Shown piece by piece: positions 5,027-53,450 of a stretch of DNA of 64,000 bases (within the stretch, counting starts at the first letter, position 1; every line of letters starts with the position of its first letter). The notes below the pieces were generated by a model, which searched no databases, had not been told where the DNA came from, and saw nothing but the letters and a program-made list of their open reading frames with translations. This DNA comes from a virus (taxonomy: Duplodnaviria > Caudoviricetes), in the IMG/VR virus record IMGVR_UViG_3300027679_000366, positions 21,854 to 85,853 of that record, one strand, 5' to 3'. The translations under genes and the position numbers were made by a program.

Positions 5027-6703
5027 ATGCGTGTAATTGACATTTTAACTGAATCCGTTTTAACAGAAGCTGGCTTAACAGCTAGAGACTTTTATGAGCG
5101 CGGTAGGCTGGATAATTTTATTAAGAAATTAGTTGCCAAAGAACCTTTTTTTACTGTGGACGGCGAACAGATTGAAATTCCTGCTACCGGTTCCGAAATA
5201 AGCTGGCTCAAAACTCAACTCAAAACAAACTTTGATTCTAAAGATCCTCTAGCAAGAGCAGTACAGACTCTTAATATTTTTCCAAAGATCGGAGGAATCA
5301 GACTAAGTTCCTTGGCCAAAACTAAAGAATTTGGGGGAACATTCAGTGTGAACTCCAGTGGCAAGATGGATACTAGCAAAGCCAATATAGGGCCAACTGT
5401 TGAAGCTTTGAAAGCATTTGCTATATTTGCAAGATTGGTAATACGAAATAAGGCAACACTCACTGCTCAAGACGTTATGAAAGTTGCACAGATGGCTCAA
5501 AAGAATTCTAGTATAGTTTACCTAACAAATGAAAAAACGGGAAAACCCTCTAAAAATCCTACCACTCAGGTGACAGTTGTAAGAAAAGTACCTGACAAGA
5601 ATGGAACTGTAAAAGATGAATTTACATTAAATGTATCTTTAAGCACACCTTCTTTCGTTCGTGCAATAAATGTAACAGAAAAAGACAAGGCAGCTTGGGG
5701 ACATTTAAACGGTGTTGTGAAATATATCAATTCGGAAGGCGACTTGGCAAAATATTCTAGATACTTTGCTAATAACAACAAAAAAGATCCTGTTAAAATT
5801 GCAGTGATTGGTATTGAGTTAGGCAAAGTTGATATCTCATCATCATATACTGATCCGGTCAGTGGAGAAGAACGTCCTCTAGAAAACTTAACAATGAGTA
5901 TCAAGAGCGAAGATGCTCCTTGGTTCCATCAAACATCCGGTGGAAAATTAACCGGTATATATCAAATGTATCAAGCAATAGGTTTGACAGATGCTGAAGT
6001 AGACGAAGACATGGTCACTGCTGGCTACCAAGAAACAGGAAAGAAGAATTCCCGTGCGCAATTCCAACAGACTGTGAAGGCTGTTGAAGCCATATATGAT
6101 CTTGCTTTTGACCGACTGGGTTCAGCAATGGCCAAGTTAAACGATAAAGGCGAAGCTGACTATATTCATAACTTTTTAAACACGTTAAAACACAATATTG
6201 CAGGCGATGACAAATTAGTCTATGTAAAATTTAATGCACGTGGAGCATACTCAAAATTAAAACCCAACATGTTATGGCATCTATCTGAAGTCATCGAACT
6301 GGGCGTTAATCAAGGCACAGGCCAACGCCGCGCAATCTACTGGATTGACCAAAAAACAGGTAAAACACTGATGGAAGTGAGGATGTTAATAAATGCTCCA
6401 AATCACAGAATTACCAATCAATTTAATTTAGGCAAAGACTTCTTTTCGTTAATTAAAGAATCTGAAAAGATTTACAATGTTAACAGTACCAAAGCGGCAC
6501 CTGCTACTACCCCTACAACGGACAAGCAAGTGACCCAAGTAGAACCAACTGAACCTATCGCTAAAAAGGCAGTTCCAGCAAATATTAAAAAATCAGCGGC
6601 AACTGCTGTGCCAACCGCTAACATTGATACCAATCCCAATCAATCATTAAACCGTGCTGTTCCTAGCACAAATCCAAACGACAATATTCCGTTCGCAACA
6701 TAA
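5027..6703 (+). CDS. 558-aa putative internal head protein, possible PD-(D/E)XK-like core, P/T/A-rich tail
   Basis: N-terminus MRVIDILTE; KVDI...MSIK motif; distant homolog of 9280..11127. Confidence 0.45.
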   Translation: MRVIDILTESVLTEAGLTARDFYERGRLDNFIKKLVAKEPFFTVDGEQIEIPATGSEISWLKTQLKTNFDSKDPLARAVQTLNIFPKIGGIRLSSLAKTKEFGGTFSVNSSGKMDTSKANIGPTVEALKAFAIFARLVIRNKATLTAQDVMKVAQMAQKNSSIVYLTNEKTGKPSKNPTTQVTVVRKVPDKNGTVKDEFTLNVSLSTPSFVRAINVTEKDKAAWGHLNGVVKYINSEGDLAKYSRYFANNNKKDPVKIAVIGIELGKVDISSSYTDPVSGEERPLENLTMSIKSEDAPWFHQTSGGKLTGIYQMYQAIGLTDAEVDEDMVTAGYQETGKKNSRAQFQQTVKAVEAIYDLAFDRLGSAMAKLNDKGEADYIHNFLNTLKHNIAGDDKLVYVKFNARGAYSKLKPNMLWHLSEVIELGVNQGTGQRRAIYWIDQKTGKTLMEVRMLINAPNHRITNQFNLGKDFFSLIKESEKIYNVNSTKAAPATTPTTDKQVTQVEPTEPIAKKAVPANIKKSAATAVPTANIDTNPNQSLNRAVPSTNPNDNIPFAT

Positions 6704-6766
6704 TCCACGTACTTAGAATACCTTATTAGTAGTAAATACTAATAACGATATACCGGGAGCGAAACC

Positions 6767-7381
6767 GTGGATCCAATCACGATAGGTCTGGCATTTGCCG
6801 CCGCCCAATCAGCAGTTAGTCATATAAAGCAAGCCGTAGCTCTGGGTAAGGACATCAACAGTCTAGTAGGGCAATTCAGCAAATTCTTTGAAAGTTCAGA
6901 TTCTATACATCGTGAACGAACAAAGTTAAAAGCCAAAGCTAACCTACTGGGCAAAACTGATGCTGAGTTGGGGCACGAAGCCCTACAAATTGCCATGCAC
7001 AGTGATGCCCTACGTCAAGCAGAGCGCGATCTCAAAGACATGATTCTTTGGCAATTGGGTAAACCGCAGATTTGGGAACAAATGATTGCCGAGCGCACCA
7101 GACTATTCAAAGCCCGTGCAGAAGCCCAACGTGCAGAAGAAGAACGTGAACTAGCACACAAGAAAAAAATGGCTGATACGTTTATTTTTGGCATGTATTT
7201 CCTAGCAGGGTCAGTGATTGTATTTGCATTTGCCATGGGCGGTGTTGGCATTTACGGCCAGATGGAAGAAAAACGAATTTATGAAGAAAAGGTTGTCAAG
7301 AGAAATCTAGTTATTCGTCAACAACAAAAAGAACGCGAAGCTCGTGAAAAGAAAGAACGCGAAGATTATGCTAAAAATTAA
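6767..7381 (+). CDS. membrane-anchored coiled-coil protein (MDP-helix family)
   Basis: GTG start after GGGAG; amphipathic N-helix, coiled coil, one TM near C-terminus. Confidence 0.6.
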   Translation: MDPITIGLAFAAAQSAVSHIKQAVALGKDINSLVGQFSKFFESSDSIHRERTKLKAKANLLGKTDAELGHEALQIAMHSDALRQAERDLKDMILWQLGKPQIWEQMIAERTRLFKARAEAQRAEEERELAHKKKMADTFIFGMYFLAGSVIVFAFAMGGVGIYGQMEEKRIYEEKVVKRNLVIRQQQKEREAREKKEREDYAKN

Positions 7382-7392
7382 CAAAGGAACGT

Positions 7393-7506
7393 ATGTACTT
7401 CAACATTATTATCACATTCAATGATCTGCTGTTCTTATTGTCAATGACTCCATTAGTGGCTATATTTTGTGTCATGTTTAAAGATTGGCTCAAAGATAGA
7501 AAATGA
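7393..7506 (+). CDS. 37-aa hydrophobic microprotein
   Basis: AAAGGA SD; MYFNIIITFNDLLFLLSMTPLVAIFCVMFKDWLKDRK; ATGA overlap with next ORF. Confidence 0.55.
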   Translation: MYFNIIITFNDLLFLLSMTPLVAIFCVMFKDWLKDRK

Positions 7507-7664
7507 TCATGTACGAATGGATATTGATGCTAGCCCTTGCACAAGAACCAGTTAAGAAATGGCCAGAGTGGGAGTGTGTGCGTTGGACATGGACCGGTGA
7601 CGTTTACAATCGCACAGTGATATGTTTAGAATGGCGCAAGAGAGAAAATAGATGGAAACCCTAA
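7503..7664 (+). CDS. small protein with CVRxxWxGDVxNRTxxCxE motif
   Basis: Manual translation ...WECVRWTWTGDVYNRTVICLEWRKR...; paralog of 7652..7897. Confidence 0.65.
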   Translation: MIMYEWILMLALAQEPVKKWPEWECVRWTWTGDVYNRTVICLEWRKRENRWKP

Positions 7665-7897
7665 ACAGAATAATTGTGGTCCTGGCATTATCGACTCTGT
7701 GTGTTTCTACGATAGTGTCAAGTTCACCCATGTACGGCGGTGATCGTCCCAATGTAGCTAGAGAATTACCCAGTCGAGAACGTGAAGTAACGCTCAATCA
7801 GGGTGTTGCCCAATGTGTTAGAACTGCTTGGATTGGTGATGTCAGCAATAGAACATTGATTTGTGTTGAATATCGCTATCGGAAAGAGGTCAAGTAA
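7652..7897 (+). CDS. small exported protein with CVRxxWxGDVxNRTxxCxE motif
   Basis: Signal-peptide-like N-terminus; QCVRTAWIGDVSNRTLICVEYRYR. Confidence 0.65.
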   Translation: METLNRIIVVLALSTLCVSTIVSSSPMYGGDRPNVARELPSREREVTLNQGVAQCVRTAWIGDVSNRTLICVEYRYRKEVK

Positions 7898-8679
7898 TGG
7901 ATCCCTTAACACTCTTTGCACTGGCCAATGCCGCAGTGTCCGCAGTCAAGGCTGGCTGTAAACTTTATAAAGATATCAAAGGTGCGGCGGGTGATGTCAA
8001 GGATGTACTCAAAGATCTTGATGCACAGTTCCAAAAACTTCACCCGGCTGAAAAACCAGCCACAGTAGAGCAACGTAATCAATACATTCGTACAAAAAAC
8101 GAAGTTGTCGAGTTAAACAAAAAGGCTAACTCGGGCGAGCATACCGGTGTTTACACAGAGATTGGCAATCATCTTGGCGCATATTACGATAACTTAAACA
8201 AGTGTATGGCAATCTTTGCTGAAGAAGAACGTCGCAGTAAAACACAAGTTTATACTGGAGATGACAGCCTAGGTAAACGTGCCTTACAACGTGTGTTGAT
8301 GCGCAAGCAATTGGAACAAATGGGCACTGAACTGCGTGAGATAATGGTGTATCAAAGCCCTAAAGAACTGGGTGCGCTTTATACAGAAGTAGAAGAGATG
8401 ATGAGAGAAATGGGTAAGGAACAAAAAGTTCTCATCATCAAGCAAATGAAAATTCAGGAGGTACAGGATCGTAGACGTGCGGCCCGTATGAAACAGCTGA
8501 GAGAAGAGTTGATCATCGGTGTAGCAATCATGATCATCATCATTATCATGGGCGGAGTGTTCATGTGGGTAGCACATGATCGCCAGCAAAAATACCCACA
8601 ATACGGCAACGAGTTATTTCCCAAGTCTGAAAAACAGCGACAATCTGAAGCAGAGCCTAAAGTATATATAGGACGCTAG
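7897..8679 (+). CDS. membrane-anchored coiled-coil protein (MDP-helix family)
   Basis: MDPLTLFALANAAVSAVK, RALQ..LRE motif, C-terminal TM. Confidence 0.6.
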   Translation: MDPLTLFALANAAVSAVKAGCKLYKDIKGAAGDVKDVLKDLDAQFQKLHPAEKPATVEQRNQYIRTKNEVVELNKKANSGEHTGVYTEIGNHLGAYYDNLNKCMAIFAEEERRSKTQVYTGDDSLGKRALQRVLMRKQLEQMGTELREIMVYQSPKELGALYTEVEEMMREMGKEQKVLIIKQMKIQEVQDRRRAARMKQLREELIIGVAIMIIIIIMGGVFMWVAHDRQQKYPQYGNELFPKSEKQRQSEAEPKVYIGR

Positions 8680-8686
8680 GTGTTAA

Positions 8687-8767
8687 TTACTTCAATTGCC
8701 ATTCCATCCATATCAAGAACGCAGTGACTAATAATGTTAATATCAGAACAATTTGTGGCAATCTCAT
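8687..8767 (-). CDS. 26-aa single-TM microprotein
   Basis: MRLPQIVLILTLLVTAFLIWMEWQLK; ATGA overlap with 8764..9195. Confidence 0.45.
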   Translation of the reverse strand: MRLPQIVLILTLLVTAFLIWMEWQLK

Positions 8768-9195
8768 ATTTTGTATAGTTTAAAAAAGTAAGTAACTAAT
8801 GTGCCAGCTACAAAACACCAGCACAACACATCAATTTGTTTTTGTCGGTCGCGATCCATTGCAGATAATTCAGCTTTATATTCTTTTTCTATAACAGCTT
8901 TTTCAGCTTCTACTTTGATCCACGCATCCTTGCCGTATTTTTGAATAGTTTCAGCCTTTAGTCTAGCTACATCTCGCTCGTACTTCATCTTAGTCTCAAA
9001 TTTTTCAAGAGCTCTATACTCAAGAGTTGATTTTCGATGTTGCTCTGCTAGTTTAGATTTTATACGGGATTCATGCTCGCGCTGAACGGTAGCTTCCATA
9101 TCAGCCTGTTGGCTTGATACAACTGCTCCTAATTCCTTGCCTGCACTTTGCGCAGATTTAAGGGTAGTTGTGGCGGACTTAATTCCGTCTAACAT
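8764..9195 (-). CDS. coiled-coil protein with C-terminal TM (third, distant member of MDP-helix family)
   Basis: RALE...LK..I..YG..AW motif; start reassigned to ATG 9195 after GGGAG. Confidence 0.55.
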   Translation of the reverse strand: MLDGIKSATTTLKSAQSAGKELGAVVSSQQADMEATVQREHESRIKSKLAEQHRKSTLEYRALEKFETKMKYERDVARLKAETIQKYGKDAWIKVEAEKAVIEKEYKAELSAMDRDRQKQIDVLCWCFVAGTLVTYFFKLYKI

Positions 9196-9279
9196 TTTTC
9201 GCTCCCGAGGTTCCTCACCAGTATTTACTATGAGGTGGGGAATCATTAAATGACTGCTTTTTCTTGTTCTAAAACAAAC

Positions 9280-11127
9280 TTAGTGTGAGTATTTTGCTAA
9301 ATGTAACATGCGTTGTAATTCACTTACATGTTCATCTTTGTGGGGTTGCCATTTGTGTTGTTCTGCAACCTTTTCTTCATCGTTAGCTAGTTGCGATTGC
9401 TGTGAAACGTCTGCAGGTTGTTGTGATGTAGGAACAGTTGGCATTGGTGCTTGTGTAGTAGTTGCTTTAACTGCGGCATTTGGCTCTGTTTTTGTTTTTG
9501 CAGGGCTAGTTGCCGTTGGTTGGTCAAATACTGGTTTAGCCCGTGTATCAAACGTTGATGCAGTATCTGCACCTTCTTGTTGAGTTATGTCAGTAAGTTT
9601 CTTCAACAAACCGCCCATTTCAACTACGTTGCGTGTAGTTTTGTCTTGGTTATATGTACGTAGTTGTACAAACATACTATCACCATTATTAATGCGTTTT
9701 CCTAAATCAGTTACAGCAAAACCGTAAATCTTTAAGATACAAGTTTTTTCAGAGATTGTTAATTCGTGTGTTAGATTGTAATTTTTTAGTGCTTCATGAA
9801 ATTCCGGGCCAAACGATAATTCTTTATATGCTTCTTTAGCTGAAGGGCTAATAACTACTACACGAACATCTTGTCCTAGAGTTGCATGATGTACCACTCC
9901 GGTTGTCACTTCTTTAACAAAATCATACTCATTAGCACTACCGGACAATAATTTCTTTAGTTCTTTATCCATGTACTTATAGGCCGCAGGAATAGCAATT
10001 CTAGAATTATAATCGCGTGCCGCTTTAGCGATAGGTTCTCTTTCTTTAGAATATAAGTATCCTTCTGGAGCAGGATCACCTTTCTTCCAATCCGGAAACA
10101 ATAGATTACCAGTTTCGTCTGTTGGAGGATTCTTTGGTGAAAACTGCAACGGCACCATCTTAAACTTTTTCTTTATTTCTTCGGGTAAGTGTATGCCTAA
10201 TACACTGTTTAAGAATGTATCAATTTTATCAAACTCATAACCAGCATATCCGCCAATATGCTTAACTGTGCTTGTTTTAATACTTAATAGTTTTTCTTTA
10301 GTTCCATTAAGAGCAATCCATAAGTCTGCTTTTGTACTATGTTGGGCTTCGTGTGTTGCGCCATCAGCTGTAACTGAGATTACATCTTTAGTATCGGCAT
10401 TTTTAATTTTTTCTAATGCAGATTTAACAGCACTTGATTGATTAACGTATGTTGCGCAATCACTAAACATTTTGTATACTTGTTTTGAATTTTCATATTT
10501 TAAAAATTCTTGAGGATTACGTGCAGACATTATAAATGCTTTAAAGTCTTCACCTGCCAGTGCAATATTAAGTTCTATAGCTTTACCAAATGCTGTGCTT
10601 TTAATACTTGTACCTTCAATGCGTTGTGCTGTACCAAATACATCCTTGGCTTCTAATTCAGCACCCTCTTTTTCAAATTTTGTTAGTACAGCAGATGCCA
10701 TAATAGCTTCTGCAACGTTGCCGTCATTCCACCATTTACTGTAAGTTTTCTCACCTGGTTTTTCGCCTACTTTTTGCTTGATAGCGCCAGTCTTTTCAAT
10801 TTGGTTAACTCGATATTCGCCACCGCCTTTAGCTGGTAATAAAACTGTTTTGATTTGTTCTAGCTGTTCGCCATCAGGTGACTCTAATCTGTCGCGGCCA
10901 GTTGGATTCCAAATAGCTTCTAATCTGTCTGCGGCCTCTGGGGAAAATTTAATAGTCTTTACTAACTTAGGACTTGTTTTAGTCTTATCAAGAGTAACTT
11001 GTATCTCGTCGCCTGCTCGTATTGAGTTGATTAAGTTTCGATAATAGTTCGAATTACCCGGTCTAGCGATAGATACGGGCTGGAGTGTTTCTTCAGAAAC
11101 CAGGTATTTAAAATCATTAAATCTCAT
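9280..11127 (-). CDS. 615-aa putative internal head protein, possible PD-(D/E)XK-like core
   Basis: Start MRFNDFKYLVSEE 7 nt after TAAATA; GNVAE, KADL...LSIK motifs; positional equivalent of 5027..6703. Confidence 0.45.
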   Translation of the reverse strand: MRFNDFKYLVSEETLQPVSIARPGNSNYYRNLINSIRAGDEIQVTLDKTKTSPKLVKTIKFSPEAADRLEAIWNPTGRDRLESPDGEQLEQIKTVLLPAKGGGEYRVNQIEKTGAIKQKVGEKPGEKTYSKWWNDGNVAEAIMASAVLTKFEKEGAELEAKDVFGTAQRIEGTSIKSTAFGKAIELNIALAGEDFKAFIMSARNPQEFLKYENSKQVYKMFSDCATYVNQSSAVKSALEKIKNADTKDVISVTADGATHEAQHSTKADLWIALNGTKEKLLSIKTSTVKHIGGYAGYEFDKIDTFLNSVLGIHLPEEIKKKFKMVPLQFSPKNPPTDETGNLLFPDWKKGDPAPEGYLYSKEREPIAKAARDYNSRIAIPAAYKYMDKELKKLLSGSANEYDFVKEVTTGVVHHATLGQDVRVVVISPSAKEAYKELSFGPEFHEALKNYNLTHELTISEKTCILKIYGFAVTDLGKRINNGDSMFVQLRTYNQDKTTRNVVEMGGLLKKLTDITQQEGADTASTFDTRAKPVFDQPTATSPAKTKTEPNAAVKATTTQAPMPTVPTSQQPADVSQQSQLANDEEKVAEQHKWQPHKDEHVSELQRMLHLAKYSH

Positions 11128-11137
11128 AGTAGAGTAT

Positions 11138-11818
11138 TTATCGGATTTCTGGGAACAAACATTCCTGAATGAAGTGCTGTACATCGTCCTCACTTAGCCC
11201 CAAACTAACCATCACACGCGGTGTATGGGGGTTGCACTTCTGATTTTGTGCATAATAGTTCTGTGCTAGTGTTGTATCTTCAGCTGTGTTGTTTGTTTCC
11301 GCTACTGTGCTTAGATAGTGTGCTACTGTAGTTTTAGCTAGATTTGTAATTTGTTCTAGTTCTGCTTCATCTTGTACGTTACCCGCGGCCACCATACTAC
11401 CACTGAATATGTTAGTAGCCCATTCAGGCAAAGCACGTTCTCTGCGCCATTCTAATTTGGCTACTTCATCATGGAACCACGCCATCATTGGATGGTCAGC
11501 ATCGCCTGCTTTTGAGTAATCGTGAAAACAACCGGTAATCTTGTTCTTACCAGCTATAACATCAAATCCATAGATAGGTGCAGGGTTATGAGTATGTGGA
11601 AAGATGCAACAATGCATCATCCATAATCCTTTAGAGTCTCTTGCGTCTACAACATCAACGTGAGCGCGGCGGTAACTATCAGAAGTCCATACGCGATTAA
11701 TCCACCCTGGTTGATTAAAGCGATCCATACCCGGTTCAAATACTTCTGTGCCAGTGTTATCAAAACTGTTCTCCAATAGATGTTGTATTTCTATTAACGT
11801 ATCCCATACCTTGCTCAT
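11138..11818 (-). CDS. pcyX: ferredoxin-dependent bilin reductase, PcyX-type, copy B
   Basis: 17 differences in 226 aa from copy A by manual count. Confidence 0.85.
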   Translation of the reverse strand: MSKVWDTLIEIQHLLENSFDNTGTEVFEPGMDRFNQPGWINRVWTSDSYRRAHVDVVDARDSKGLWMMHCCIFPHTHNPAPIYGFDVIAGKNKITGCFHDYSKAGDADHPMMAWFHDEVAKLEWRRERALPEWATNIFSGSMVAAGNVQDEAELEQITNLAKTTVAHYLSTVAETNNTAEDTTLAQNYYAQNQKCNPHTPRVMVSLGLSEDDVQHFIQECLFPEIR

Positions 11819-12366
11819 ACATCTCCGTACAACTTAACAATAGGCATCATGTCTTGAAAGAAACGTTTAGCAAAGTCAAAACACACTTTAGCTTCGTCTG
11901 CCATGTCATCGCTGATGCGTTCTCGGATAGCGGCTTTTAACACATCTGGATTTTCAAATTGATAATACTTACCCGAACCCGGAACACGTTTAGCAATCAT
12001 TTGTCCGCCTGCAAGGTCGCCCATGTGCCGTACATATATGTGTGCCATTAATTTCTTAGGATCATCTTTAATACTTAAAATATACTTGGTATATTCTTCA
12101 ACTGCTGGTGTCATAGCCGGCATGTCTTCATGCGGCCACAATTCAATAAAGTCCGCTAAGATAGCAGGTGCTCTACGAATATCAGGCAGACCGTGTAACA
12201 ACTGATGCGGCATCGCACATACTTCTAACACTTCATACATTGGGTGTTGGTTCTTTAAGTATGTTGCATATAGCTCTGGATTAATGTTTCCAGAAAACAA
12301 TATTTTTACAAAGGGCTGAGTCTCAGCGTCTCTGTGTGCATCGTGTGTAAGGTCTTTTAAGCTCAT
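11815..12366 (-). CDS. hemO: heme oxygenase, copy B
   Basis: YVRHMGDLAGGQMI motif. Confidence 0.92.
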   Translation of the reverse strand: MSLKDLTHDAHRDAETQPFVKILFSGNINPELYATYLKNQHPMYEVLEVCAMPHQLLHGLPDIRRAPAILADFIELWPHEDMPAMTPAVEEYTKYILSIKDDPKKLMAHIYVRHMGDLAGGQMIAKRVPGSGKYYQFENPDVLKAAIRERISDDMADEAKVCFDFAKRFFQDMMPIVKLYGDV

Positions 12367-12665
12367 TCTTCTTCCAGTTTAATTTGTAACGGATAGCCAT
12401 TTGCTCTAGCTTGATTAGTTGCTTCAACTGCTTTAGCTTCAGCAATTTCAAAACTATAGATTCCAGCTATGCCGGAGCCAGTTTCGTGTACTTGGAACAT
12501 AATCGCTTGGGCTGTTTCATGAGTATGTTTGAAGATTTCAATTAGCAATGAGATTACAAATTCCATGGGGGTTGAATCATCGTTGAGTAAAATAACCTTC
12601 CAATTTTTTGGTTCGGATACTTTAATTTTAATCTTTTCTTCTAGTTGAATATCAGTGCTAGCCAT
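12363..12665 (-). CDS. clpS: ClpS, copy B
   Basis: WKVILLNDDSTPMEFV, YPLQIKLEEE. Confidence 0.93.
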   Translation of the reverse strand: MASTDIQLEEKIKIKVSEPKNWKVILLNDDSTPMEFVISLLIEIFKHTHETAQAIMFQVHETGSGIAGIYSFEIAEAKAVEATNQARANGYPLQIKLEEE

Positions 12666-12718
12666 TGTTATCTCTTTTTTAAAATTGGGGGAGTTGCCTC
12701 CCCCGGGTTTATTTACAC

Positions 12719-13144
12719 TTATTTAATTTCGATAGTACGAGGTTTGAGTGCATCTGGAACAATACGCTCAATTTCAATCACAAGCATACCATCCTTTACT
12801 TCTGCTCCTTTAACCTCCATATACTCAGCAAGAGTAAATGTTTGTTCAAAGTCCCTAGCGGCTAAGCCACGATGTAGATATTCAAAACGACTATCTGCTT
12901 GATTTAGTTTACATCCTTTTACGGTGAGTTGATCTTGGTCAACTTCTACTGTAATTTCTTCTTTACTAAAACCTGCTACTGCTACTTCGATACCATAATG
13001 CGTATCGCTATACTTCACGATGTTATGTGGAGGATAGTTTCCATTTTGGTGATGCGGCGCTGTAAAATAGCGATCAAATCCCACTAGTGCTTTGCTCAGT
13101 TGTGCTAGAGCGGCTGTGTCAATTGTTCTTAATTGGTGTGTCAT
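12719..13144 (-). CDS. Hsp20, copy B
   Basis: YPPHNI, YLHRGLAARDF; start MTHQLRT after AAGGAGA. Confidence 0.95.
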   Translation of the reverse strand: MTHQLRTIDTAALAQLSKALVGFDRYFTAPHHQNGNYPPHNIVKYSDTHYGIEVAVAGFSKEEITVEVDQDQLTVKGCKLNQADSRFEYLHRGLAARDFEQTFTLAEYMEVKGAEVKDGMLVIEIERIVPDALKPRTIEIK

Positions 13145-13198
13145 TTTAGATCTCCTTATTAGCAAGAACATTTGTAGGGCCCCGGAGGCACCCTACGT
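13142..13198 (-). promoter_or_regulatory. ROSE-like RNA thermometer upstream of hsp20 (copy B)
   Basis: GTAGGG-TGCC-TCCG-GGG-CCCTAC hairpin, TTCTTGCT, AAGGAGA. Confidence 0.75.
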
Positions 13199-13202
13199 TG
13201 TT

Positions 13203-13231
13203 ATTATATTACTTTTTTTCTGTAGAGTCAA
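13203..13231 (-). promoter_or_regulatory. sigma70 promoter for hsp20 copy B
   Basis: TTGACT-17 bp-TATAAT on minus strand. Confidence 0.8.
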
Positions 13232-15110
13232 CTTCTGTGAAGCTTGCATCTACTGTTTGTTCACCGGTTTGCGGAGCCTGTTGTTTGGCTTGCTCTGCGG
13301 CTTGTTTCTTTTCAAACACAGGAGTTGCTGATTCAAAAAGTGTCTGTACAGATTTTGTGATTGCTTCCACATCATCACCTGCATGGGCTGTGTCCATTGC
13401 TGTGAGTGCTTCTTCAATCTTACTCTTCTCTTCATCAGTTAATTGGTCTTTAACTTCGTCAAAGTCCTTTTGGAACTGATGACGTTGAGCATCGGCTTGA
13501 TTACGAGCTTCAATAAGCTCACGAGCCTTTTTATCAGACTCTGCATTTTCTTCAGCTTCACGAACCATACGTTCAATTTCAGCTTCAGTTAATCCAGAAT
13601 CAGATTTGATAGTAATCTTATTTTCTTTGCCAGTGTTTTTATCTTTGGCACTTACATTAAGAATACCGTTTGCGTCAATGTCTAGTGTAACTTCAATTTG
13701 CGGTGTGCCACGCGGTGCTGGAGCAATACCTTCTAAATTAAACTCACCTAACGATTTGTTGTACTTAAACAATTCACGTTCGCCCTGCGCCACTTTGATA
13801 GTAACTGCTGGCTGATTGTCGTCCGCTGTTGAAAATGTTTGACTATGCTTAGTTGGAATAGTTGTATTCTTTTTAATCAACTTGGTCATTACACCACCCA
13901 TTGTTTCAATACCTAGTGTCAATGGAGTAACGTCTAGTAATAGAACATCTGTCTTATCGCCAGCTAGCACAGCACCTTGTATGGCGGCGCCTGCGGCAAC
14001 TGCTTCGTCTGGATTAACATCCTTACGTGGTGCTTTACCAAAGAACTTTTCAACTGCTTCTTGTACTTTAGGCATACGTGTTTGGCCACCAACAAGAATA
14101 ATTTCGTCAATGTCAGCATTAGTAACACCTGCGTCTTTCATAGCAATTTTACATGGCTCAATTGAACGTTTGATTAATTCTTCAACCATTGATTCAAACT
14201 TAGCACGATTAATAGTTACATTCATGTGCTTGGGACCACTAGCATCTGCGGTAATGTATGGTAAGTTAACGGCTGTGCTAGTTGTGCTAGACAATTCAAT
14301 CTTAGCTTTTTCAGCGGATTCTTTCAAACGCTGTAGAGCCAACATGTCTTGTTTAAGATCAATGCCGTTATCTTTCTTAAATTCTGCAACTAGGTAATCC
14401 ATTAACACTTGGTCAAAGTCTTCACCGCCCAAGAATGTATCACCGTTTGTTGATAGTACTTCAATTTGTTTGTCGCCATCGATGTTGGCAATTTCAATAA
14501 TGGAGATATCAAATGTACCACCACCTAAGTCGTAAACTGCAATCTTGCGATCCTTCTTGTCTGTCTTATCAACCCCATAACTCAATGCCGCCGCTGTTGG
14601 CTCATTGATAATACGCAACACTTCTAAGCCAGCAATGCGTCCAGCATCTTTCGTTGCTTGACGTTGGCTATCATTAAAATATGCCGGAACAGTAATAACG
14701 GCTTGTGTTACTTCGTGGCCCAAATAGTCTTCAGCAGTCTTTTTCATTTTGCGAAGTACTTCAGCAGACACCTGTTGTGGTGCTAGCTTTTCGCCGTTAG
14801 CCTCAATCCACGCATCGCCATTGTCAGCCTTGACAATAGTATATGGCATTAAGTCTATATCTTTTTGTACTGCGGCTTCGTCAAACTTGCGACCAATAAG
14901 GCGCTTGCTGGCGTAGATTGTATTTTTGGGGTTTGTGACTGCTTGTCGTTTTGCTGTTGCACCTACTAGGATGTCGTCCTTTGTATATGCAATGATTGAT
15001 GGCGTTGTTCTTGCGCCCTCGCTGTTTTCAATTACTTTAGCAACTCCGTTTTCTAGGACTGCTACACAGCTATTTGTTGTACCTAAATCGATACCGATGA
15101 TTTTGCTCAT
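13209..15110 (-). CDS. dnaK: DnaK, copy B
   Basis: All Hsp70 signature motifs; 633 aa. Confidence 0.98.
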
Positions 15111-22059: not shown

Positions 22060-22102
22060 TTTTAATTCTCCTTTAATGGTGAGTAATTTTTACTCTACTA
22101 CT

Positions 22103-22131: not shown

Positions 22132-22140
22132 TCTTTTTGA

Positions 22141-33654: not shown

Positions 33655-33695
33655 GATCTATTCCTAGAAATCTTATAGTGTATTTATACTTTTCA

Positions 33696-39876: not shown

Positions 39877-40228
39877 ATGCTTGTCTATATATTAGGTTTG
39901 ATTTTATACTTGTAGGACTAAAGAATTCTTCTACAGTATGTATTGCTTGGCTTGTATCAAAATCCTTACAACTAAACACATCGATATAAGCGGCCTTTGT
40001 TGAATTAACAAAGTGTGCTGTTATATTGCTAGTTGTTATCATTTGCAGTAGACTATAGCCTTCGTTGTCAGTACCAACCAGCATGAGTTCTATTTGTGGA
40101 CTACCATATGCTGTCATATTAATTCGTTCAATTAATGTAACAACAAAATTATTAATAGTTGTTCTATCAGTAATAGATTCTAGATTGCAATCGCTACAAT
40201 CTAATATTAAGTGGTAACCCCAGCTCAT
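39875..40228 (-). CDS. speD: S-adenosylmethionine decarboxylase-like proenzyme
   Basis: GYHLILD, ITTSNITAH, YIDVFSCK. Confidence 0.75.
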   Translation of the reverse strand: MSWGYHLILDCSDCNLESITDRTTINNFVVTLIERINMTAYGSPQIELMLVGTDNEGYSLLQMITTSNITAHFVNSTKAAYIDVFSCKDFDTSQAIHTVEEFFSPTSIKSNLIYRQA

Positions 40229-40635
40229 GCAACGCTTTCTTGTCCAAAGTACGATGGATGTGCTTTACCCCAGTTGCGCATGATTACTGCCGCTCGGGCA
40301 TTGGCTTCATTTTCTTGTGGTGATCCTGTAGATCCTGCTTCATCATCTTCTAGCTCATTGTCTAAGTCTTGCTTGTAGTGTACAAGTTCATGTGCTAATG
40401 TACGGCATACATCCATGATGTGACGATTCTTTACTGTGATAGTAATATGTTCGTCGCCCGGAGCATATCCACCAAAGCTTCTACGTTCCATAGACTCTTT
40501 GTTATCAAACACAAAGTCAAACTTAGGCAAGCTGGTTAGCTCTAAGTCTTTGGCGGCAAAACGGATAAAGTCCAATAGGATTGGATAGGTATCCTTCTTG
40601 TTTAGACTTTCAGTTAGGAGTTCTTTAATCTTCAT
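40225..40635 (-). CDS. zincin metallopeptidase-like protein with capsid-targeting-like tag
   Basis: RTLAHELVH...ENEANA; MKIKELLTE. Confidence 0.75.
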   Translation of the reverse strand: MKIKELLTESLNKKDTYPILLDFIRFAAKDLELTSLPKFDFVFDNKESMERRSFGGYAPGDEHITITVKNRHIMDVCRTLAHELVHYKQDLDNELEDDEAGSTGSPQENEANARAAVIMRNWGKAHPSYFGQESVA

Positions 40636-41855: not shown

Positions 41856-41883
41856 TATTTGTATCCTCTAACAATATTTATGC

Positions 41884-41891
41884 TATAAATA
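41884..41891 (+). promoter_or_regulatory. TATAAATA late promoter, back-to-back with a minus-strand TAAATA at 41875-41880
   Basis: 7 nt before hemA ATG, no SD. Confidence 0.7.
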
Positions 41892-41898
41892 CGTTACT

Positions 41899-46248: not shown

Positions 46249-46631
46249 TAGAATCTCCCTTGTACTGATTTAGCCAGTATGTCTGCTTGTTGTTGTATAA
46301 TCTTCTTCTTTAGGTCACAGTATAATGGACTCACCGGACCTTTGGCTACACGCTCTTGCAATTCTTTAACAGTATCTTTGATAGTGCCTGTTAGTTTGTT
46401 TATGTCACGTGTGGGTTTGGTCTGACTGTAGATGTCAAACCATTCTACATTCTTGGCCAGCTGATCAACTTGTGGTTTCAAGTCTGTTTTACAATCAAAG
46501 TGTCTAACCTGTTGTTGTATATCTGTTATGCTCTTGGCTTGATTAACATCCCAACTGCTGGGAATGTATTCCATAATGCTGGCACAGCCTGTTAAACTTA
46601 AAAATGCCGCAATCAATAATAGTTTTTTCAT
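46248..46631 (-). CDS. lipoprotein
   Basis: MKKLLLIAAFLSLTGC lipobox. Confidence 0.75.
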   Translation of the reverse strand: MKKLLLIAAFLSLTGCASIMEYIPSSWDVNQAKSITDIQQQVRHFDCKTDLKPQVDQLAKNVEWFDIYSQTKPTRDINKLTGTIKDTVKELQERVAKGPVSPLYCDLKKKIIQQQADILAKSVQGRF

Positions 46632-47554
46632 TTCTTTTTTGCCCTTCCTGCTTTCATATTGGCTAGCCAGTGTGCTAGTTGTCCCTTGCGTCCACCTTGC
46701 TTGGCAGTTTTACGCAAGCTACTTACTGATGCTTTGGTATTGACACCGTGGCGTTTGGCATCGCCTTTGTCTTGGGGATTCTTTCCATCAGCAAAGTTTT
46801 CATTCTTAATGCTTTCTCCACCGCCACCATCACCGCCACCAGCGTCTCCACTACTGTCGCTGTTGCCATAGTTTGAGAAATATCCGTAACCACCATATAG
46901 ACTAGGACCATATGCGGCTCTGCGAGGTTTGCGTTTTTTCTTACGTTCTTCTAAAGTCTGATCTTCATTAGTACGGTGATACTCACTTGCTTCACCTTCT
47001 AAGCTCACCTGCCACGCATAGAATTTAGTTTGTGGATATTCATCTTTGAGTTCTACAAATGATTCCAAATTAGGCACAGCATCATCGTACATAATAGCTT
47101 TGGTATAATTGCCTTTGTTTAATAAATCACGTATAATAATCTTTTTCTTTTCTTCTGTTTGCATCTTACCTTGCATGTTACCTGCACGATAAACATGGAC
47201 CTTGCCCATGTCAACACCATACTTGCGGAACGTGTCTAAGAATAATTCGCGGTCATCAAAGTCAGCACGGGCAGTAACCATAACAACTTTATTGCCTGTA
47301 GCAATATCATTCTTAAGTTGATTAAGCATAGGTATGATTGGTTTAGCATTGTTGAAGAATTCTTTTGCATTGGCAAAGTCTCCAAAATCAAACTTCTCAC
47401 CGTCTTGTAATTTGTAGTGTGTAAAATTGTGGCTGTTTAGACTGTTAATGACCCGCCTGTCTTTAACAACATGAACTTTTGTTTGTGTGTGAACTAGGGT
47501 GTCATCTATGTCAAAGATAACTAATTTACGTGGAGTAAATTCTTGCACTCTCAT
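46628..47554 (-). CDS. HAD phosphatase (PNK/RNA-repair-like) with basic C-terminal modules
   Basis: FDIDDTL, VTAR, MYDD; N-terminus MRVQEF. Confidence 0.75.
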   Translation of the reverse strand: MRVQEFTPRKLVIFDIDDTLVHTQTKVHVVKDRRVINSLNSHNFTHYKLQDGEKFDFGDFANAKEFFNNAKPIIPMLNQLKNDIATGNKVVMVTARADFDDRELFLDTFRKYGVDMGKVHVYRAGNMQGKMQTEEKKKIIIRDLLNKGNYTKAIMYDDAVPNLESFVELKDEYPQTKFYAWQVSLEGEASEYHRTNEDQTLEERKKKRKPRRAAYGPSLYGGYGYFSNYGNSDSSGDAGGGDGGGGESIKNENFADGKNPQDKGDAKRHGVNTKASVSSLRKTAKQGGRKGQLAHWLANMKAGRAKKK

Positions 47555-47555
47555 T

Positions 47556-48233
47556 TTATTTCAAGCCTTCAGTCACACTTTGTTTCTCTAAATGTTTTTT
47601 AACTTGTTGTAACTCTGATTGGTCTAAGTCATCCAAGTGCTCTTTGCCCGTTAATCGTTTGGTAAGACGAAGGAAACTGGGTTCATTATCCCATTTAACG
47701 CCCTTACGGTCTGCCAATTTGTGTATAGTGTTAGGTGTTATGCTTTCAGTTACATTATCTAAAAATGTACTGGCAAATTTCTTACACTTATCTCGTAATG
47801 ATGAATCTGTTGTTTCTAACAGAGTAAATTGTCTTGCGTCATCATCTTCTTTTTCTGTAGGATCTATATATCCACAGTAGACTTTCTTTACATTAGATTG
47901 ATTCACAACATTGGTACAACTTTCACCATAACGCTCATCCGTATGTGTTTGATCACAAGGACTCAGTGTAGTGATTATAATACTGCCGCTTGGAATTGAA
48001 CCATGTTGTTTCTCATATGCTTCCATGGCAGCACGTTCTGCATGAATTCTTTTTCCGTTGCTAGCAGGACGATTTAATCTAGCAACTAATTTGTTATTGG
48101 GATCTAACACAGCAGACGCAACCATACCATAATCTTTATTACTGGATTGTCCTTTTTCAACTAGGTCACAGAGTTTAGATAATATTGCATCTAACTTAGA
48201 ATAGTTGCTGATTTCAAAATCACTAGCTCTCAT
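47556..48233 (-). CDS. Zn-dependent nucleoside/nucleotide deaminase
   Basis: IHAE...TLSPC...C; N-terminus MRASDFE. Confidence 0.75.
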   Translation of the reverse strand: MRASDFEISNYSKLDAILSKLCDLVEKGQSSNKDYGMVASAVLDPNNKLVARLNRPASNGKRIHAERAAMEAYEKQHGSIPSGSIIITTLSPCDQTHTDERYGESCTNVVNQSNVKKVYCGYIDPTEKEDDDARQFTLLETTDSSLRDKCKKFASTFLDNVTESITPNTIHKLADRKGVKWDNEPSFLRLTKRLTGKEHLDDLDQSELQQVKKHLEKQSVTEGLK

Positions 48234-48907
48234 TTTTTCTTACCTGCACAATGCGCCTTTTGAGAGAATCCCTTAGGGCTAGCACAGTTGATTGAGCTCT
48301 TATACTTCTGTGTCCATTTTTCTTCTAGGGCGGCTTCATCTATTGCTTTCTTAAATCCTTTGCCCGGAACCCAACCAGCAATAGGTTTACATTTACAGGT
48401 ACCTGGTTTACAGCTACAGTTAGTCATACCACATTGTAGACAGCGTTTTTTTTCGCTTTCCGATACACTTTCGTTAGGTACACAGTTATTAACACGAACA
48501 CCGCCTTTGATCTTGGTGCCTTCTTTATGTTTACCCTTCCAGCATTTGGGATCCAGTCTCTGTTTCAATTCTGCAATGTGTGTTTCGCCTAACATGATTA
48601 ACTCTTGCATTTGTTCAATGCTTTCACAGTTCCAGCGGCGTAAGGCCAACGCTTTAGGAGTAGGCTTACCATTAGGCTTTTTCATAGGACCTTTGTTGCC
48701 GCCCATCCTAGCACAAAAACTCTTGCGGCGCTTGGCTGCTTTACTACCAGCTTTTAATTTACTAGGTTTGGTAGTAACAGCAGTTTTTAATTTGCTGCCT
48801 GGATTCTCTCTGCGATAAGCATTGACAGCTTTTTGACTTAGACCATCTGTCTTGTCTTTCTTGTTGACCTTGTTCCAGTCTTCGTTAAGTAATTCGGATA
48901 TTTTCAT
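48230..48907 (-). CDS. basic Cys-rich modular protein
   Basis: MKISELLNE; modules RRKSFCARM, CWKG...NNCV, CxxC..CxC...CxC, INC..PKGFSQKAHC. Confidence 0.6.
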   Translation of the reverse strand: MKISELLNEDWNKVNKKDKTDGLSQKAVNAYRRENPGSKLKTAVTTKPSKLKAGSKAAKRRKSFCARMGGNKGPMKKPNGKPTPKALALRRWNCESIEQMQELIMLGETHIAELKQRLDPKCWKGKHKEGTKIKGGVRVNNCVPNESVSESEKKRCLQCGMTNCSCKPGTCKCKPIAGWVPGKGFKKAIDEAALEEKWTQKYKSSINCASPKGFSQKAHCAGKKK

Positions 48908-48908
48908 A

Positions 48909-49541
48909 TTAAGTATTTGGAAGTTTCATTGGGTTTAGATTACGATCAAGGCGCTGGCTTCCCATGCCACCACCGCTAGTCATTCTGTTAGTAAAATTGC
49001 CGCTATTCTGATTTGTTGGCAACGGCGGAGTTGGTAATGCGCTTGGACTTTTCTCTTTGTTAACTAACGGCACATGTTTTTGGGCAGGTTGAGCTCTAGT
49101 AAGGGCAAACCTGGTTCCATCAGGGCCATCTGCTATGCGAGTACCTATTAACCCCATTGTTGGTGCCAGTCGATCTATCATACGTAGATATGCTTTAGTT
49201 CTACTAGGTTCTACACTGGTAAAATAAAGTGAATTTATATCTGGTCTTGTATCAAGGTAATGTTTGAGATTTCGAACTACTCCTGTTAGAATCTTTGGCG
49301 TTGCACCACTACTGTCGCCGGAGATATCAAAGTTTTTATTTCTATTAAACTCTACACTAACGCCATCTTTTGCTTGTGGGGAGGAATAGTGGATTGGTGA
49401 TATCACAGTTTGTATTTCTTTACCAGTATCATCTGTCCACTTAGCTACTGTACTACCGCTGTCCTTACTGGTATGCCACTTAGTCTCAGGTGCAGGCCCA
49501 GTTATATCTAAAACCTCGCTAATGATCTCAGATATTTTCAT
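48909..49541 (-). CDS. hypothetical with capsid-targeting-like tag
   Basis: MKISEIISE. Confidence 0.55.
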   Translation of the reverse strand: MKISEIISEVLDITGPAPETKWHTSKDSGSTVAKWTDDTGKEIQTVISPIHYSSPQAKDGVSVEFNRNKNFDISGDSSGATPKILTGVVRNLKHYLDTRPDINSLYFTSVEPSRTKAYLRMIDRLAPTMGLIGTRIADGPDGTRFALTRAQPAQKHVPLVNKEKSPSALPTPPLPTNQNSGNFTNRMTSGGGMGSQRLDRNLNPMKLPNT

Positions 49542-51764: not shown

Positions 51765-51779
51765 ATGAGATATTTATTG

Positions 51780-52514
51780 TTACTTACTATAGAGTTGCGC
51801 TTCTTTGGCACGTTCTCTTCCCTTTGCCTCTTTATCTTGTGGACGTTCAAACTCTACGCAAAACCAGTACGTTGCTTCTTCAGGTGATTTAAATGTTCTA
51901 GCGGCAAATGCTGGCCCTTTTCCTATACGTGATGACAAGGCAAAATCAATTTGTCCTTGCCAGTTAGTTTGCCACTTGCCGGGGCCGCCACAGGCTTGCG
52001 CCATTGAACTAAAGAACCCCTTACCACTAAAGGTAAGATCGTGAAACATAAACAATCCACCACTTGGTCCTTGGCTAGCATCACTGTGTACCCAACGACC
52101 CGGTTGCCAACCGCTTTCCCATTTACAGTTTACTACCATAGCGACTGCATGGTTAAAACTTAGCTTGTTTGCTATGTAAGAACGCATTTCTCTCCAGTTG
52201 ATCTTGTCTTTAGAACTAGGACCAAACTGTTTCATTTGTTCTGGTGTGGCACCTTTAGGAGTATAACCATTTGACACTGTGACTGATGTTTGGGGTTCAG
52301 GAGTAGTTGGCTTTTCAGTACTAGGAGTAGTTGGCTTTTCCGTACTGGGAGTAGTTGGCTTTTCCGTACTAGGAGTAGCTGGCTTGTCAGCGGCAGCTAG
52401 TTTGTCAGTCTCAGTTTTATTGAAGGCCGCAACGTTTACTCCAGCTTTACCCATGATGGCATTAAGTATGCCGTCTAAGTCCTCGTTGATCTTTTTAAAT
52501 TCTGAATATCGCAT
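51780..52514 (-). CDS. phage tail-lysozyme-like peptidoglycan hydrolase
   Basis: N...ESG, GLF.., QIDF, F...FERP; MRYSEFKKINE tag. Confidence 0.7.
   Translation of the reverse strand: MRYSEFKKINEDLDGILNAIMGKAGVNVAAFNKTETDKLAAADKPATPSTEKPTTPSTEKPTTPSTEKPTTPEPQTSVTVSNGYTPKGATPEQMKQFGPSSKDKINWREMRSYIANKLSFNHAVAMVVNCKWESGWQPGRWVHSDASQGPSGGLFMFHDLTFSGKGFFSSMAQACGGPGKWQTNWQGQIDFALSSRIGKGPAFAARTFKSPEEATYWFCVEFERPQDKEAKGRERAKEAQLYSK
52300..52388. repeat. 24-bp in-frame tandem repeat (KPTTPSTE x ~3.7)
   Basis: GGAGTAGTTGGCTTTTCMGTACTR units at 52300, 52324, 52348, partial at 52372. Confidence 0.9.
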
Positions 52515-52516
52515 AA

Positions 52517-53077
52517 TTATCCTATATACTTCATTGGGTCTACTGGACGGCCGGCAACATATTTTTCCCAGTGTAAGTGAGGACCAGTAGAATTTCCACT
52601 GTTGCCGCTCAGTGCTACTACATCGCCTTTTCTAACCAGTTGTCCTAGTTTAACTTTTACTTGTGACAAATGTAATAGTCGATGTTTTAATCGTCCGGCA
52701 CCATCAGTTAAATTAACATGTAATCCGGCTATACTATTGTTGTCAATAGATCCAACAAAACAATCTTCAGGAGCTTTGACTGGTGTTCCAACCGGTACTG
52801 CAATGTCAGTTCCCCAATGCATGCCTCTTGCACGTTGTCCAAATGGGCTAGTTAGTGAGCCGTTTGCAGGCATTTCAATGCCTGTTGATGTTCGTAATGT
52901 TATCCCTGGATGAGCTTTAAATGTTGTATCGCTGGCTGGCTTATTTACATCCATAGATATATTATTTGCATCTGTTGTCTTATTGCCAGCTGTGATATCT
53001 ATACCAGCTTTGCCCATTATAGCGCCAAGTATATTATCTAGGTTTTCGTTAACATTTTTAAATTCGTTGAATCGCAT
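52517..53077 (-). CDS. M23 family peptidase
   Basis: TSPFG.R, HWGTD, LHL, STGPHLHWE; MRFNEFKNVNE tag. Confidence 0.9.
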   Translation of the reverse strand: MRFNEFKNVNENLDNILGAIMGKAGIDITAGNKTTDANNISMDVNKPASDTTFKAHPGITLRTSTGIEMPANGSLTSPFGQRARGMHWGTDIAVPVGTPVKAPEDCFVGSIDNNSIAGLHVNLTDGAGRLKHRLLHLSQVKVKLGQLVRKGDVVALSGNSGNSTGPHLHWEKYVAGRPVDPMKYIG

Positions 53078-53078
53078 A

Positions 53079-53450
53079 TTAACTCCAGTCAGGCAAGGGA
53101 CCTCCGTACTTCTGTCCTTTGATACGGTGCCCTCCTACTTTAATACGACTCTTTTTATCTTTGCCTAGCTTATGTGATTTCTCACCATCACGGGCACGTA
53201 GGCCTTGTGACTTACAACTTGACAGCATACTAGCACCTAAGTCTGCGTCGGGCTTAGAACTTTTACATAGTTCACGTGATGCTTTACCATGCTCGTCTAA
53301 AACTTTATCGTGTGATGTACCACAGTATTCACATACTGTTTTATATCGAGATTCTGTAGTATGCCCTCGATCAGGACGGCTTCCAGGACGAGCCGGGCGT
53401 TTAGGGTGTGTGCCGATGGCACCTTCGGTGGTGAATTCTTTTGCTCTCAT
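53079..53450 (-). CDS. basic protein with capsid-targeting-like tag
   Basis: MRAKEFTTE; CEYC; KGQKYGGPLPDWS. Confidence 0.55.
   Translation of the reverse strand: MRAKEFTTEGAIGTHPKRPARPGSRPDRGHTTESRYKTVCEYCGTSHDKVLDEHGKASRELCKSSKPDADLGASMLSSCKSQGLRARDGEKSHKLGKDKKSRIKVGGHRIKGQKYGGPLPDWS

Follow-up and report, generated by a model that had tools for sequence, protein, structure and literature searches.

Bacteriophage T4 packs its head with internal proteins (IPs) that carry a short N-terminal leader, the capsid targeting sequence (CTS). In the T4 record IPII and IPIII start with MKTYQEFIAE and IPI with MKTFKEFTSTTTPVSTITE. As described in PMC9026906, the first ten residues of IPIII suffice for head loading; targeting depends on residues 4 and 7 and processing on residues 8 and 10, and with Asp at position 10 the protein is still targeted but no longer processed; T4 gp21 cuts after L/I-X-E; and the internal proteins are basic. 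The same ten letters are given as the CTS in PMC8442874, according to which about 1000 IP molecules, or any CTS-fused protein, stay in the capsid. The internal-protein genes of T-even phages encode diverse injected anti-restriction proteins with only the CTS in common (PMC3012670, PMC9026906), and phiKZ-like giants (201phi2-1, phiKZ, SPN3US) have propeptide-bearing head and ejection proteins that are cut after Glu at S/A-X-E (PMC9026906). Here we analyze a 64,000-nucleotide stretch of viral DNA (the window, whose positions are used throughout unless stated otherwise) in which a short N-terminal peptide of comparable build, the tag, opens a set of late proteins. The window corresponds to bases 21854-85853 of a single 85,853-base contig, IMG/VR record IMGVR_UViG_3300027679_000366.

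An N-terminal peptide on mostly unrelated late proteins

A first-pass annotation of the window had listed 14 N-termini with the pattern M-[KRQ]-h-x-[DE]-[FIL] (h, hydrophobic), and all 14 are present where it placed them. Written strictly as ^M[KRQ][IVFLYA].[DE][FIL], the pattern opens 14 of the 144 open reading frames (ORFs) of at least 50 amino acids (aa) on the 85.9-kb contig, 12 of these being inside the window. The two other N-termini listed for the window are that of the frame starting at 11127, after correction of the start, and that at 35108, where MKVKQIV is indeed weak, as the annotation had said. The 11127 start is a Met inside a longer frame that opens with GTG, has TAAATA 13 nt upstream and is the only match to the strict pattern among 627 internal Met positions. 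Independence of columns predicts 1.23 matches, and 5000 column shuffles of the first six residues gave a mean of 1.23 and a maximum of 7; as the pattern was fitted after the instances had been seen, the exact fold-enrichment is inflated, though the conclusion is not.

A leave-one-out weight matrix over residues 2-9 yielded a similar picture. Seventeen ORFs score at least 3.2, namely 13 of the 14 already listed plus four ORFs outside the window, at mirrored positions in one arm (arm A) of an inverted duplication described below; the best remaining ORF scores 2.1, and the top three of 596 internal Met positions score 6.7, 3.5 and 3.0. The listed protein that falls outside, of 337 aa (32641-33654), has a long tag with other residues at 7-9 and for this reason scores -0.6. 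No additional tagged ORF that the annotation had missed was found in the window. Across 17 sources, 73 of 690 ORFs are tagged, and with the tag stripped they form 16 clusters, comprising orthologues in IMG/VR contigs as well as unrelated proteins. One 14-member cluster joining the HAD, deaminase, DUF6321 and 136-aa proteins proved to be a single-linkage effect of multi-domain proteins in the relatives; within the contig these four share nothing at an E-value of 1e-4. The tagged proteins had been called unrelated. This holds for most of them, about 12 families remaining, but the window contains two related pairs (558/615 aa and 244/186 aa) and only those two. The claim that the tag is absent from metabolic genes stands, in that no ORF with a chaperone or core-metabolism Pfam family is tagged.

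Many tags end in [ILV]-x-E, a motif that is not part of the strict pattern and thus provides an independent second feature. On the contig it ends at residues 8-17 in 10 of 15 tagged ORFs, compared to 17 of 129 untagged ones (p 1.8e-5), and exactly at residue 9 in five tagged ORFs; overall, the Glu at the end of the tag lies at residue 9, 11, 12 or 17. When only the contigs of relatives are considered, after de-replication, [ILVF]-x-E is found in 31 of 43 tagged ORFs and 90 of 526 without the tag (p 9e-14), most often at residues 8-9.

The strongest conservation is seen in the families of two large proteins, one of 558 aa (5027-6703, plus strand; MRVIDILTE-SVLTE...) and one of 615 aa (9280-11127, minus strand; MRFNDFKYLVSE...). 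The 558-aa protein has 74 homologues, 50 of which fit the strict pattern; most others are off at one position and one starts later. The tag-final Glu is present in all 59 aligned rows, the most distant of them at 34% identity, and the residue two before it is Leu in 53 and Ile in 6, while the stretch right after the Glu is variable, with insertions and deletions. Forty of the 49 homologues of the 615-aa protein have the strict tag, two are truncated and the rest are variants such as a 10-residue form; among 44 aligned rows (down to 31% identity) Glu12 is found in 42 and [ILV] two residues earlier in 43, the tag alternating between 9-, 10- and 12-residue forms. In AlphaFold models built on the family alignments, residues 1-13 of the 558-aa and 1-9 of the 615-aa protein have a predicted local distance difference test score (pLDDT) below 50 and are followed by confident folds. 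About a fifth of the 558-aa family (P0004-P0008, P0035-P0049) carries a five-residue duplication of the tag end, as in DILTE-SVLTE, resulting in two consecutive h-x-E motifs.

In a further case the end of the tag coincides with a module boundary. The 225-aa basic protein encoded at 48230-48907 (minus strand; 12 Cys; isoelectric point, pI, 9.9) reads MKISELLNE and then DWNKVN..., and its DUF6321 module (2e-16) begins right after the tag Glu, with DW; the protein also contains a second small module. Two proteins of T4-like cyanophages (816 and 474 aa) contain DUF6321 as the last of several modules, starting directly after ...KLKE and ...EFHE, and the second, Cys-containing module of the window protein also lies inside the 816-aa protein, behind h-x-E. 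The gene for the 474-aa protein is located between small terminase and tail fibre genes. Both cyanophage proteins (L036:557-3004, L037:1340-2761) look like strings of small basic or acidic modules split by h-x-E and may be head polyproteins.

Could the common start reflect translation initiation, or a feature of the mRNA or DNA such as A-rich early codons, short-leader late transcripts or a recombination handle? The promoters are relevant here. TAAATA occurs 68 times, and 31 of these occurrences are in 50-nt windows upstream of starts, which make up 4.2% of the sequence. One of the 31 upstream boxes is TATAAATA at 5012-5019 (plus strand), 8-15 nt before the 5027 start; TATAAATA is the T4 late promoter consensus. 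Most of the tagged genes had been placed behind TAAATA-type promoters or in their operons, which agrees with what we see: five of the 14 are directly behind such a box (within 50 nt), and the other nine belong to same-strand runs whose gaps do not exceed 11 nt, each 1-5 genes after a start that has TAAATA. A box directly upstream does not usefully separate tagged from untagged genes, TAAATA taking this place in 5 of 15 tagged and 25 of 129 untagged ORFs. At several starts TAAATA is only 10-13 nt before the start codon (4990-5026, 11128-11180, 26738-26760, 41880-41898, 51765-51780, 53451-53465), which may leave some late transcripts with a very short leader or no leader.

This spacing would suit a signal at the nucleic acid level, as would the fact that the two arms of the contig can be aligned through the promoter and the first codons before they diverge. 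The codons of the tag, however, vary synonymously (AAA/AAG, AGA/CGT/CGA, GAA/GAG, TTA/CTT/CTC/TTG), it is missing from genes whose promoters have the same spacing (IscU, aminotransferase, AlgH-like, epimerase), and 9 of the 14 genes that carry it lie inside operons. Moreover, the Glu and the Leu/Ile at the tag end are invariant at 34% protein identity, and the divergence of the two arms past the tag is that of a fast-evolving homologue rather than of a swapped cassette (see below). We consequently give this explanation hardly any credence. The tag is a real, protein-level N-terminal peptide, portable across mostly unrelated late proteins.

Another possibility is that the peptide is a signal unconnected with the head: a recognition sequence or degron for the phage's own Hsp70, Hsp20 and ClpS, each of which is encoded twice on the contig, or a pro-sequence that holds dangerous enzymes inactive up to the moment of cleavage. 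ClpS reads an N-terminal Phe or Leu, which is what cleavage behind the first Glu (residue 5) would leave exposed; position 6 is F, L or I in all 15 tags, by construction of the pattern, and the h-x-E core at residues 3-5 is [IV]-x-E in about half of them. Arguing in the other direction, the aligned position in the 558-aa family is Phe in 38 rows, Ile in 15, Val in 4 and Leu in 2, and ClpS would not read Ile or Val. In addition, conservation centres on the later Glu, at residue 9-12, and not on residue 5, and the acidic residues of the tag are ill-suited to binding by DnaK. Such a role appears quite improbable.

The resemblance to T4 is closer. The tag had been described as similar to the T4 CTS, and the order of features is indeed alike (Met, basic, hydrophobic, any residue, Glu, Phe/Leu, then [ILV]-x-E), except that the tag is one residue shorter. 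CTS positions 4, 7, 8 and 10 map to positions 3, 6, 7 and 9 of the tag, that is, to its defined positions. The hydrophobic-x-Glu-Phe core is common to the tag and the T4 leaders (MKTYQEFIAE; MKTFKEF...ITE), a resemblance between peptides too short for homology to be scored. Tagged ORFs are also more basic, with a median pI of 9.0 versus 6.0 for untagged ones (Mann-Whitney p 0.01).

The contig, rated 23% complete by CheckV, which implies a genome of about 370 kb, encodes no head gene, and the PF03420 profile has no match on this roughly 23% of the genome. Head genes are found in a relative, G005, a 185-kb contig rated 50% complete. Twenty-nine of its 213 ORFs hit our contig, with a mean identity of 61%, and about 25 keep the gene order of window 40.6-63.4 kb; the HAD, DUF6321, M23 and 123-aa proteins have tagged orthologues in G005. 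G005 encodes the Gp23 capsid protein (E 2e-95) and a Peptidase_S77 protein (E 1e-26) that matches the T4 gp21 structure 5jbl (E 1e-14), in the order portal, 79-aa protein, 319-aa protein, protease, scaffold-like protein, capsid protein. From these matches the lineage is judged to be T4-type with a gp21-family protease. Another G005 ORF (L029, 63365-63910) starts with MKSFKEYLTE, exactly the T4 tag spacing.

Taken together, these features make it reasonably probable that the common N-terminus is a shortened T4-type capsid targeting propeptide, which would load proteins into the prohead and be cut after its final Glu in most of them. In such a scheme, the hydrophobic-x-Glu-Phe/Leu core would bind the scaffolding core of the assembling prohead, so that the protein becomes enclosed when the shell forms; the gp21-family protease would then cut after the Glu of [ILV]-x-E in most tagged proteins and free the mature protein in the head; and the mature proteins would stay with the DNA and probably be ejected into the host at infection. 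Packaging, cleavage and injection are all steps that we infer from the features above.

Two fast-diverging nuclease-like proteins and an inverted duplication

The 558- and 615-aa proteins lie at mirrored positions of the contig. BLASTP detects no similarity between them (E 0.51), and this, with the DNA alignment, had led us to consider that a cassette had been swapped behind a conserved tag. Alignment of the two family profiles with hhalign rules this out (probability 98.75%, E 1.5e-16, 435 columns, 17% identity), and on this evidence the two proteins are classed as very diverged homologues. The genes neighbouring them are 59-93% identical between the arms, and the promoter and tag have also been kept.

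What these proteins do is suggested by predicted structures. The pLDDT is 79.7 for the model of the 558-aa protein (pI 9.3) and 77.5 for that of the 615-aa protein (TAAATA at -13). The closest structural matches of the 558-aa model are monomeric restriction endonucleases. A Foldseek search with the 558-aa model gave 2fkc_A as best match (E 0.019, probability 0.95) and nothing at E 0.001 or below. VIA-align ranked HinP1I (1ynm_A) highest, with a Z of 6.2 (root-mean-square deviation 4.5, 199 aligned residues), then MspI (1sa3_A, Z 5.5), a Cas4-family nuclease (Z 5.1), HhaI (6uke_X, Z 3.9) and other nucleases (Z 4-5), values which, being below 8, may reflect merely a common arrangement. The protein atlas provided the same restriction-endonuclease lead (score 0.86), and a search of the family profile against PDB sequences returned nothing meaningful (best E 0.47). 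Enzymes of the PD-(D/E)XK fold, of which HinP1I, MspI and HhaI are examples, have a catalytic Asp ... Glu/Gln/Ser-x-Lys motif on neighbouring strands, and D269, S291 and K293, invariant in the 558-aa family, are candidates for it; the HhaI motif is given as SD-X11-EAK in PMC7026639. As the Foldseek and VIA-align values are middling, the restriction-endonuclease-like assignment is probable rather than established: the pair probably represents a very fast-evolving protein with a predicted fold like that of HinP1I and MspI.

The mirrored positions result from an unusual contig structure. Contig bases 1-26882 mirror 61538-32978 in inverted orientation, with 69-83% nucleotide identity, making up a diverged inverted duplication of about 27 kb, or giant imperfect palindrome; in window terms, 1-6700 (plus) is paired with 9280-39700 (minus). 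Most genes of window 9.3-39.5 kb thus have a diverged second copy. The relatives G001-G003 contain one copy of the reductase gene, compared to two on the contig, and in G002 the block is present once, with other genes after the bilin reductase. In four independent runs, short Logan contigs do not span the whole centre; one contig of run X4 bridges 8303-10266, and none of the X4 pieces listed covers 6883-7106 or 7722-8303. The depth ratio of the two sides varies by run, from about equal in X8 to about three-fold in X13, contig depth being a poor measure. The contig may therefore be a chimera of two co-occurring strains, or the duplication may be real. The tag is unaffected by this question, although the 558-aa gene (5027-6703) and the tagged ORFs of arm A may belong to a second strain.

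In all four runs the summed contig depth at 6700-8700 is 2-4 times higher than on either side, suggesting that this segment is repeated or also present in other genomes. Two ORFs in it, at 6767-7381 and 7897-8679, have no family match.

The remaining tagged proteins and their surroundings

The other tagged proteins are all encoded on the minus strand. Four form a group within 32641-35811. The 337-aa protein (32641-33654; MQIRELSKPITSKQLNE...) is acidic and carries the long form of the tag, in which L-N-E ends at residue 17; the tag is kept in nine orthologues from relatives, a weak PHROG match (phrog_14154, 1.5e-7) bears the label "virion structural protein", and tblastn against GenBank phages found no match. 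The 67-aa protein (34141-34344; MKINELINDF...) has no [ILV]-x-E site and has 11 tagged orthologues. Between these two genes, at 33696-34160, lies one for a 154-aa protein with a Lys-rich start followed by VKELAE (IKELAE in G002), perhaps a tag that has been displaced or extended. The 255-aa protein with the weak tag MKVKQIV (34341-35108) has a leave-one-out score of 4.9. Its counterparts at the same position have clean tags, MKVKEITLAE in arm A and MKIKEITEM and MKISDIVEH in relatives, and BLASTP between the protein and the arm-A counterpart, the only one on the contig, gave no hit at E 1e-4 or below. The fourth protein, of 237 aa (35098-35811; MQIIEFEE...), is a pol-beta-type nucleotidyltransferase (phrog_36119, 1e-51) with homologues in T4-like cyanophages, one of them annotated as nucleotidyl transferase.

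Further along, a 136-aa protein (40225-40635; MKIKELLTE...) contains an HExxH motif and is a possible zincin, with weak matches to Peptidase_M91 (E 0.022) and NF038145 (2.5e-5, below its cut-off). Three more tagged genes and that of the DUF6321 protein occupy 46628-49541. A HAD-type phosphatase of 308 aa (46628-47554; MRVQEF...) has DxDxT at residues 15-19, matches phrog_415 (polynucleotide kinase, PNK; 1.8e-10) and Acid_phosphat_B (8.8e-5, below its cut-off), and has a tagged orthologue in G005. It is followed by a 225-aa protein of the cytidine/dCMP deaminase fold (47556-48233; MRASDFE...; dCMP_cyt_deam_1 2.4e-10, residues 20-121) and, beyond the DUF6321 protein, by a basic 210-aa protein (48909-49541; MKISEIISE...) with no family match.

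A last group comprises two cell-wall hydrolases and a small basic protein. The 244-aa protein (51780-52514; MRYSEFKKINE...) has a phage lysozyme domain (Phage_lysozyme2, 4e-10) and shares an N-terminal domain, its first 70 or so residues, with the 186-aa M23 peptidoglycan peptidase encoded next to it (52517-53077; MRFNEFKNVNE...; Peptidase_M23, 1e-23). The latter also gives DD-endopeptidase-type NCBIfam matches, below their cut-offs, and has tagged homologues in relatives. The 123-aa protein (53079-53450; MRAKEFTTE...), with a pI of 9.8, 4 Cys and TAAATA at -13, has tagged orthologues in G005 and in L016/L017. Of the functions assigned in the first-pass annotation, those of nucleotidyltransferase, HAD phosphatase, deaminase, M23 peptidase and lysozyme, of basic Cys-rich proteins and of two nuclease-like proteins hold, while "zincin" derives from HExxH and the weak matches only.

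Pfam searches of the contig identified Hsp70, Hsp20, ClpS, heme oxygenase and bilin reductase, both ribonucleotide reductase subunits, glutaredoxin, IscU, IscA, sugar-nucleotide enzymes and a fibre-like protein with an Mtd_N start; a tblastn search of GenBank phages with this 738-aa protein found no match. The genes for Hsp70, Hsp20, ClpS, heme oxygenase and ferredoxin-dependent bilin reductase form a cassette, present at 1043-5016 (plus) and 11138-15110 (minus); in the relative G002 an additional 515-aa gene lies between those for heme oxygenase and bilin reductase. A chlamydial-type histone-like Hc1 protein, a PAAR protein and an IscU/IscA pair are also encoded (21865-22410, 26053-26737), the location of the pair differing in the other contig arm. 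Near-identical DNA for the central 7 kb is found in runs labelled freshwater, lake water or crustacean metagenome, indicating a lake phage rather than a marine one; 19 rows, from about as many studies, contain at least half of the words of this segment.

Packaging and injection, and comparison with known systems

Given the close resemblance of the tag to the T4 leader, the tagged proteins are probably carried in the virus particle. A broader proposal, which we put forward tentatively and with less confidence than the identity of the tag itself, is that T4-type lake phages of about 370 kb pre-pack enzymes by means of a nine-residue tag and inject them with the DNA to act before phage transcription, making the tag a simple sequence key by which the injected proteome of uncultured T4-type phages could be read from metagenomes. 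The set so defined would consist of very fast-evolving restriction-endonuclease-like nucleases, a deaminase, a nucleotidyltransferase, a PNK-like phosphatase, the HExxH protein and two cell-wall hydrolases. Under the propeptide reading the cargo also includes several basic proteins, some of them Cys-rich. A role in anti-defence or host takeover is speculation, with nothing to speak for it other than the kinds of enzyme and the fast divergence of the nuclease-like pair.

Several observations weigh against the reading of the tag as a capsid targeting propeptide. The T4 tag is one residue longer and gives no literal match to the strict pattern, and 5 of the 15 contig ORFs that match the pattern lack [ILV]-x-E at residues 8-17. 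Late expression does not distinguish tagged from untagged genes, since 25 untagged ORFs are also behind TAAATA, including those for IscU, an aminotransferase, an epimerase and the fibre-like protein. Because the contig has no head gene, the link to the protease is made through a relative with about 61% amino acid identity, and because the contig may join two strains, counting 14 tags for one phage may overcount by the arm-A genes. As to the cargo, the cyanophage homologues of the nucleotidyltransferase are located among replication genes, the M23 and lysozyme proteins could serve in lysis and not be part of the virion, and 558-615 aa is large for a protein leaving through the tail.

The tag might also bring proteins to the prohead core as helpers of assembly or maturation, or as filler that is later expelled, and not as cargo for the next host. 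Most T4 core proteins are cut into fragments that exit the head, as described in PMC9026906; several of the tagged proteins are acidic or small (pI 4.7-5.7); and the 79-aa protein encoded between the portal and protease genes of G005 (L032, G005 120589-120828) has a tag-like start, MILRELF. Most tagged proteins, however, are folded enzymes that have just one site, close to the N-terminus, in place of many internal ones, and peptidoglycan hydrolases and nuclease-like proteins have no evident role in the prohead. In T4, the proteins that bear such a tag, the IPs, remain in the head, according to PMC8442874. We therefore consider a helper or filler function unlikely and retain the targeting propeptide as the preferred reading.

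The principle is in print for T-even phages (PMC3012670, PMC9026906), and the reviews suggest that T4-like phages package varied proteins in this manner; any advance would lie in scale, type of cargo and predictive use and not in kind. We found no literature on such tags in comparable numbers, or on tagged enzymes, for cyanophages or phages from metagenomes, the open texts covered yielding only reviews of T4 and giant phages (subscription papers were outside the scope). Should the tag act like that of T4, sequence alone would reveal which proteins uncultured giant phages inject with their DNA, and injected proteins are the first weapons against host defences. Among the proteins revealed here would be enzymes not known to be packaged by any T-even phage, such as the nuclease-like pair, whose divergence far exceeds that of the neighbouring genes; rapid change of this kind often goes together with an arms race. 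The T4 packaging tag already serves to load foreign proteins into T4 heads, and the present tag supplies short natural variants of it.

Set beside the T4 CTS, the tag is alike in its place at the extreme N-terminus and in its variable length (10 and 19 residues in T4; 9, 11, 12 and 17 here). It likewise occurs on unrelated, often basic, late proteins in a T4-type lineage with a gp21-family protease, read here in a relative. It differs in having one residue fewer before the Glu-Phe core, in opening about one ORF in ten of the contig as opposed to three genes in T4, and in the nature of the proteins, which include enzymes of up to 615 aa and not just small DNA-binding proteins; a third of the tags have no cutting motif, and the function is read from sequence, unlike that in T4. 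The T-even internal-protein genes offer a parallel for a conserved leader preceding fast-changing cargo: the 558- and 615-aa proteins keep promoter and tag at 17% identity, and the cargo differs in content between the contig and G005. In our case, by contrast, the cargo comes from other families, most of them enzymes, several operons contain tagged genes, and the system is known from its genes. The phiKZ-like giants resemble it in that a diverged gp21 homologue cleaves many head-internal proteins behind Glu and the head also carries enzymes that are ejected; they belong to another lineage, with an S/A-X-E motif and long non-uniform propeptides in place of one short common tag. Finally, the DUF6321 polyproteins of cyanophages S-SCSM2R and MA01 contain the same DUF6321 and second small Cys module, each behind h-x-Glu, but there the modules are strung together in proteins of 474-816 aa, whereas in the window the module stands directly behind the N-terminal tag.

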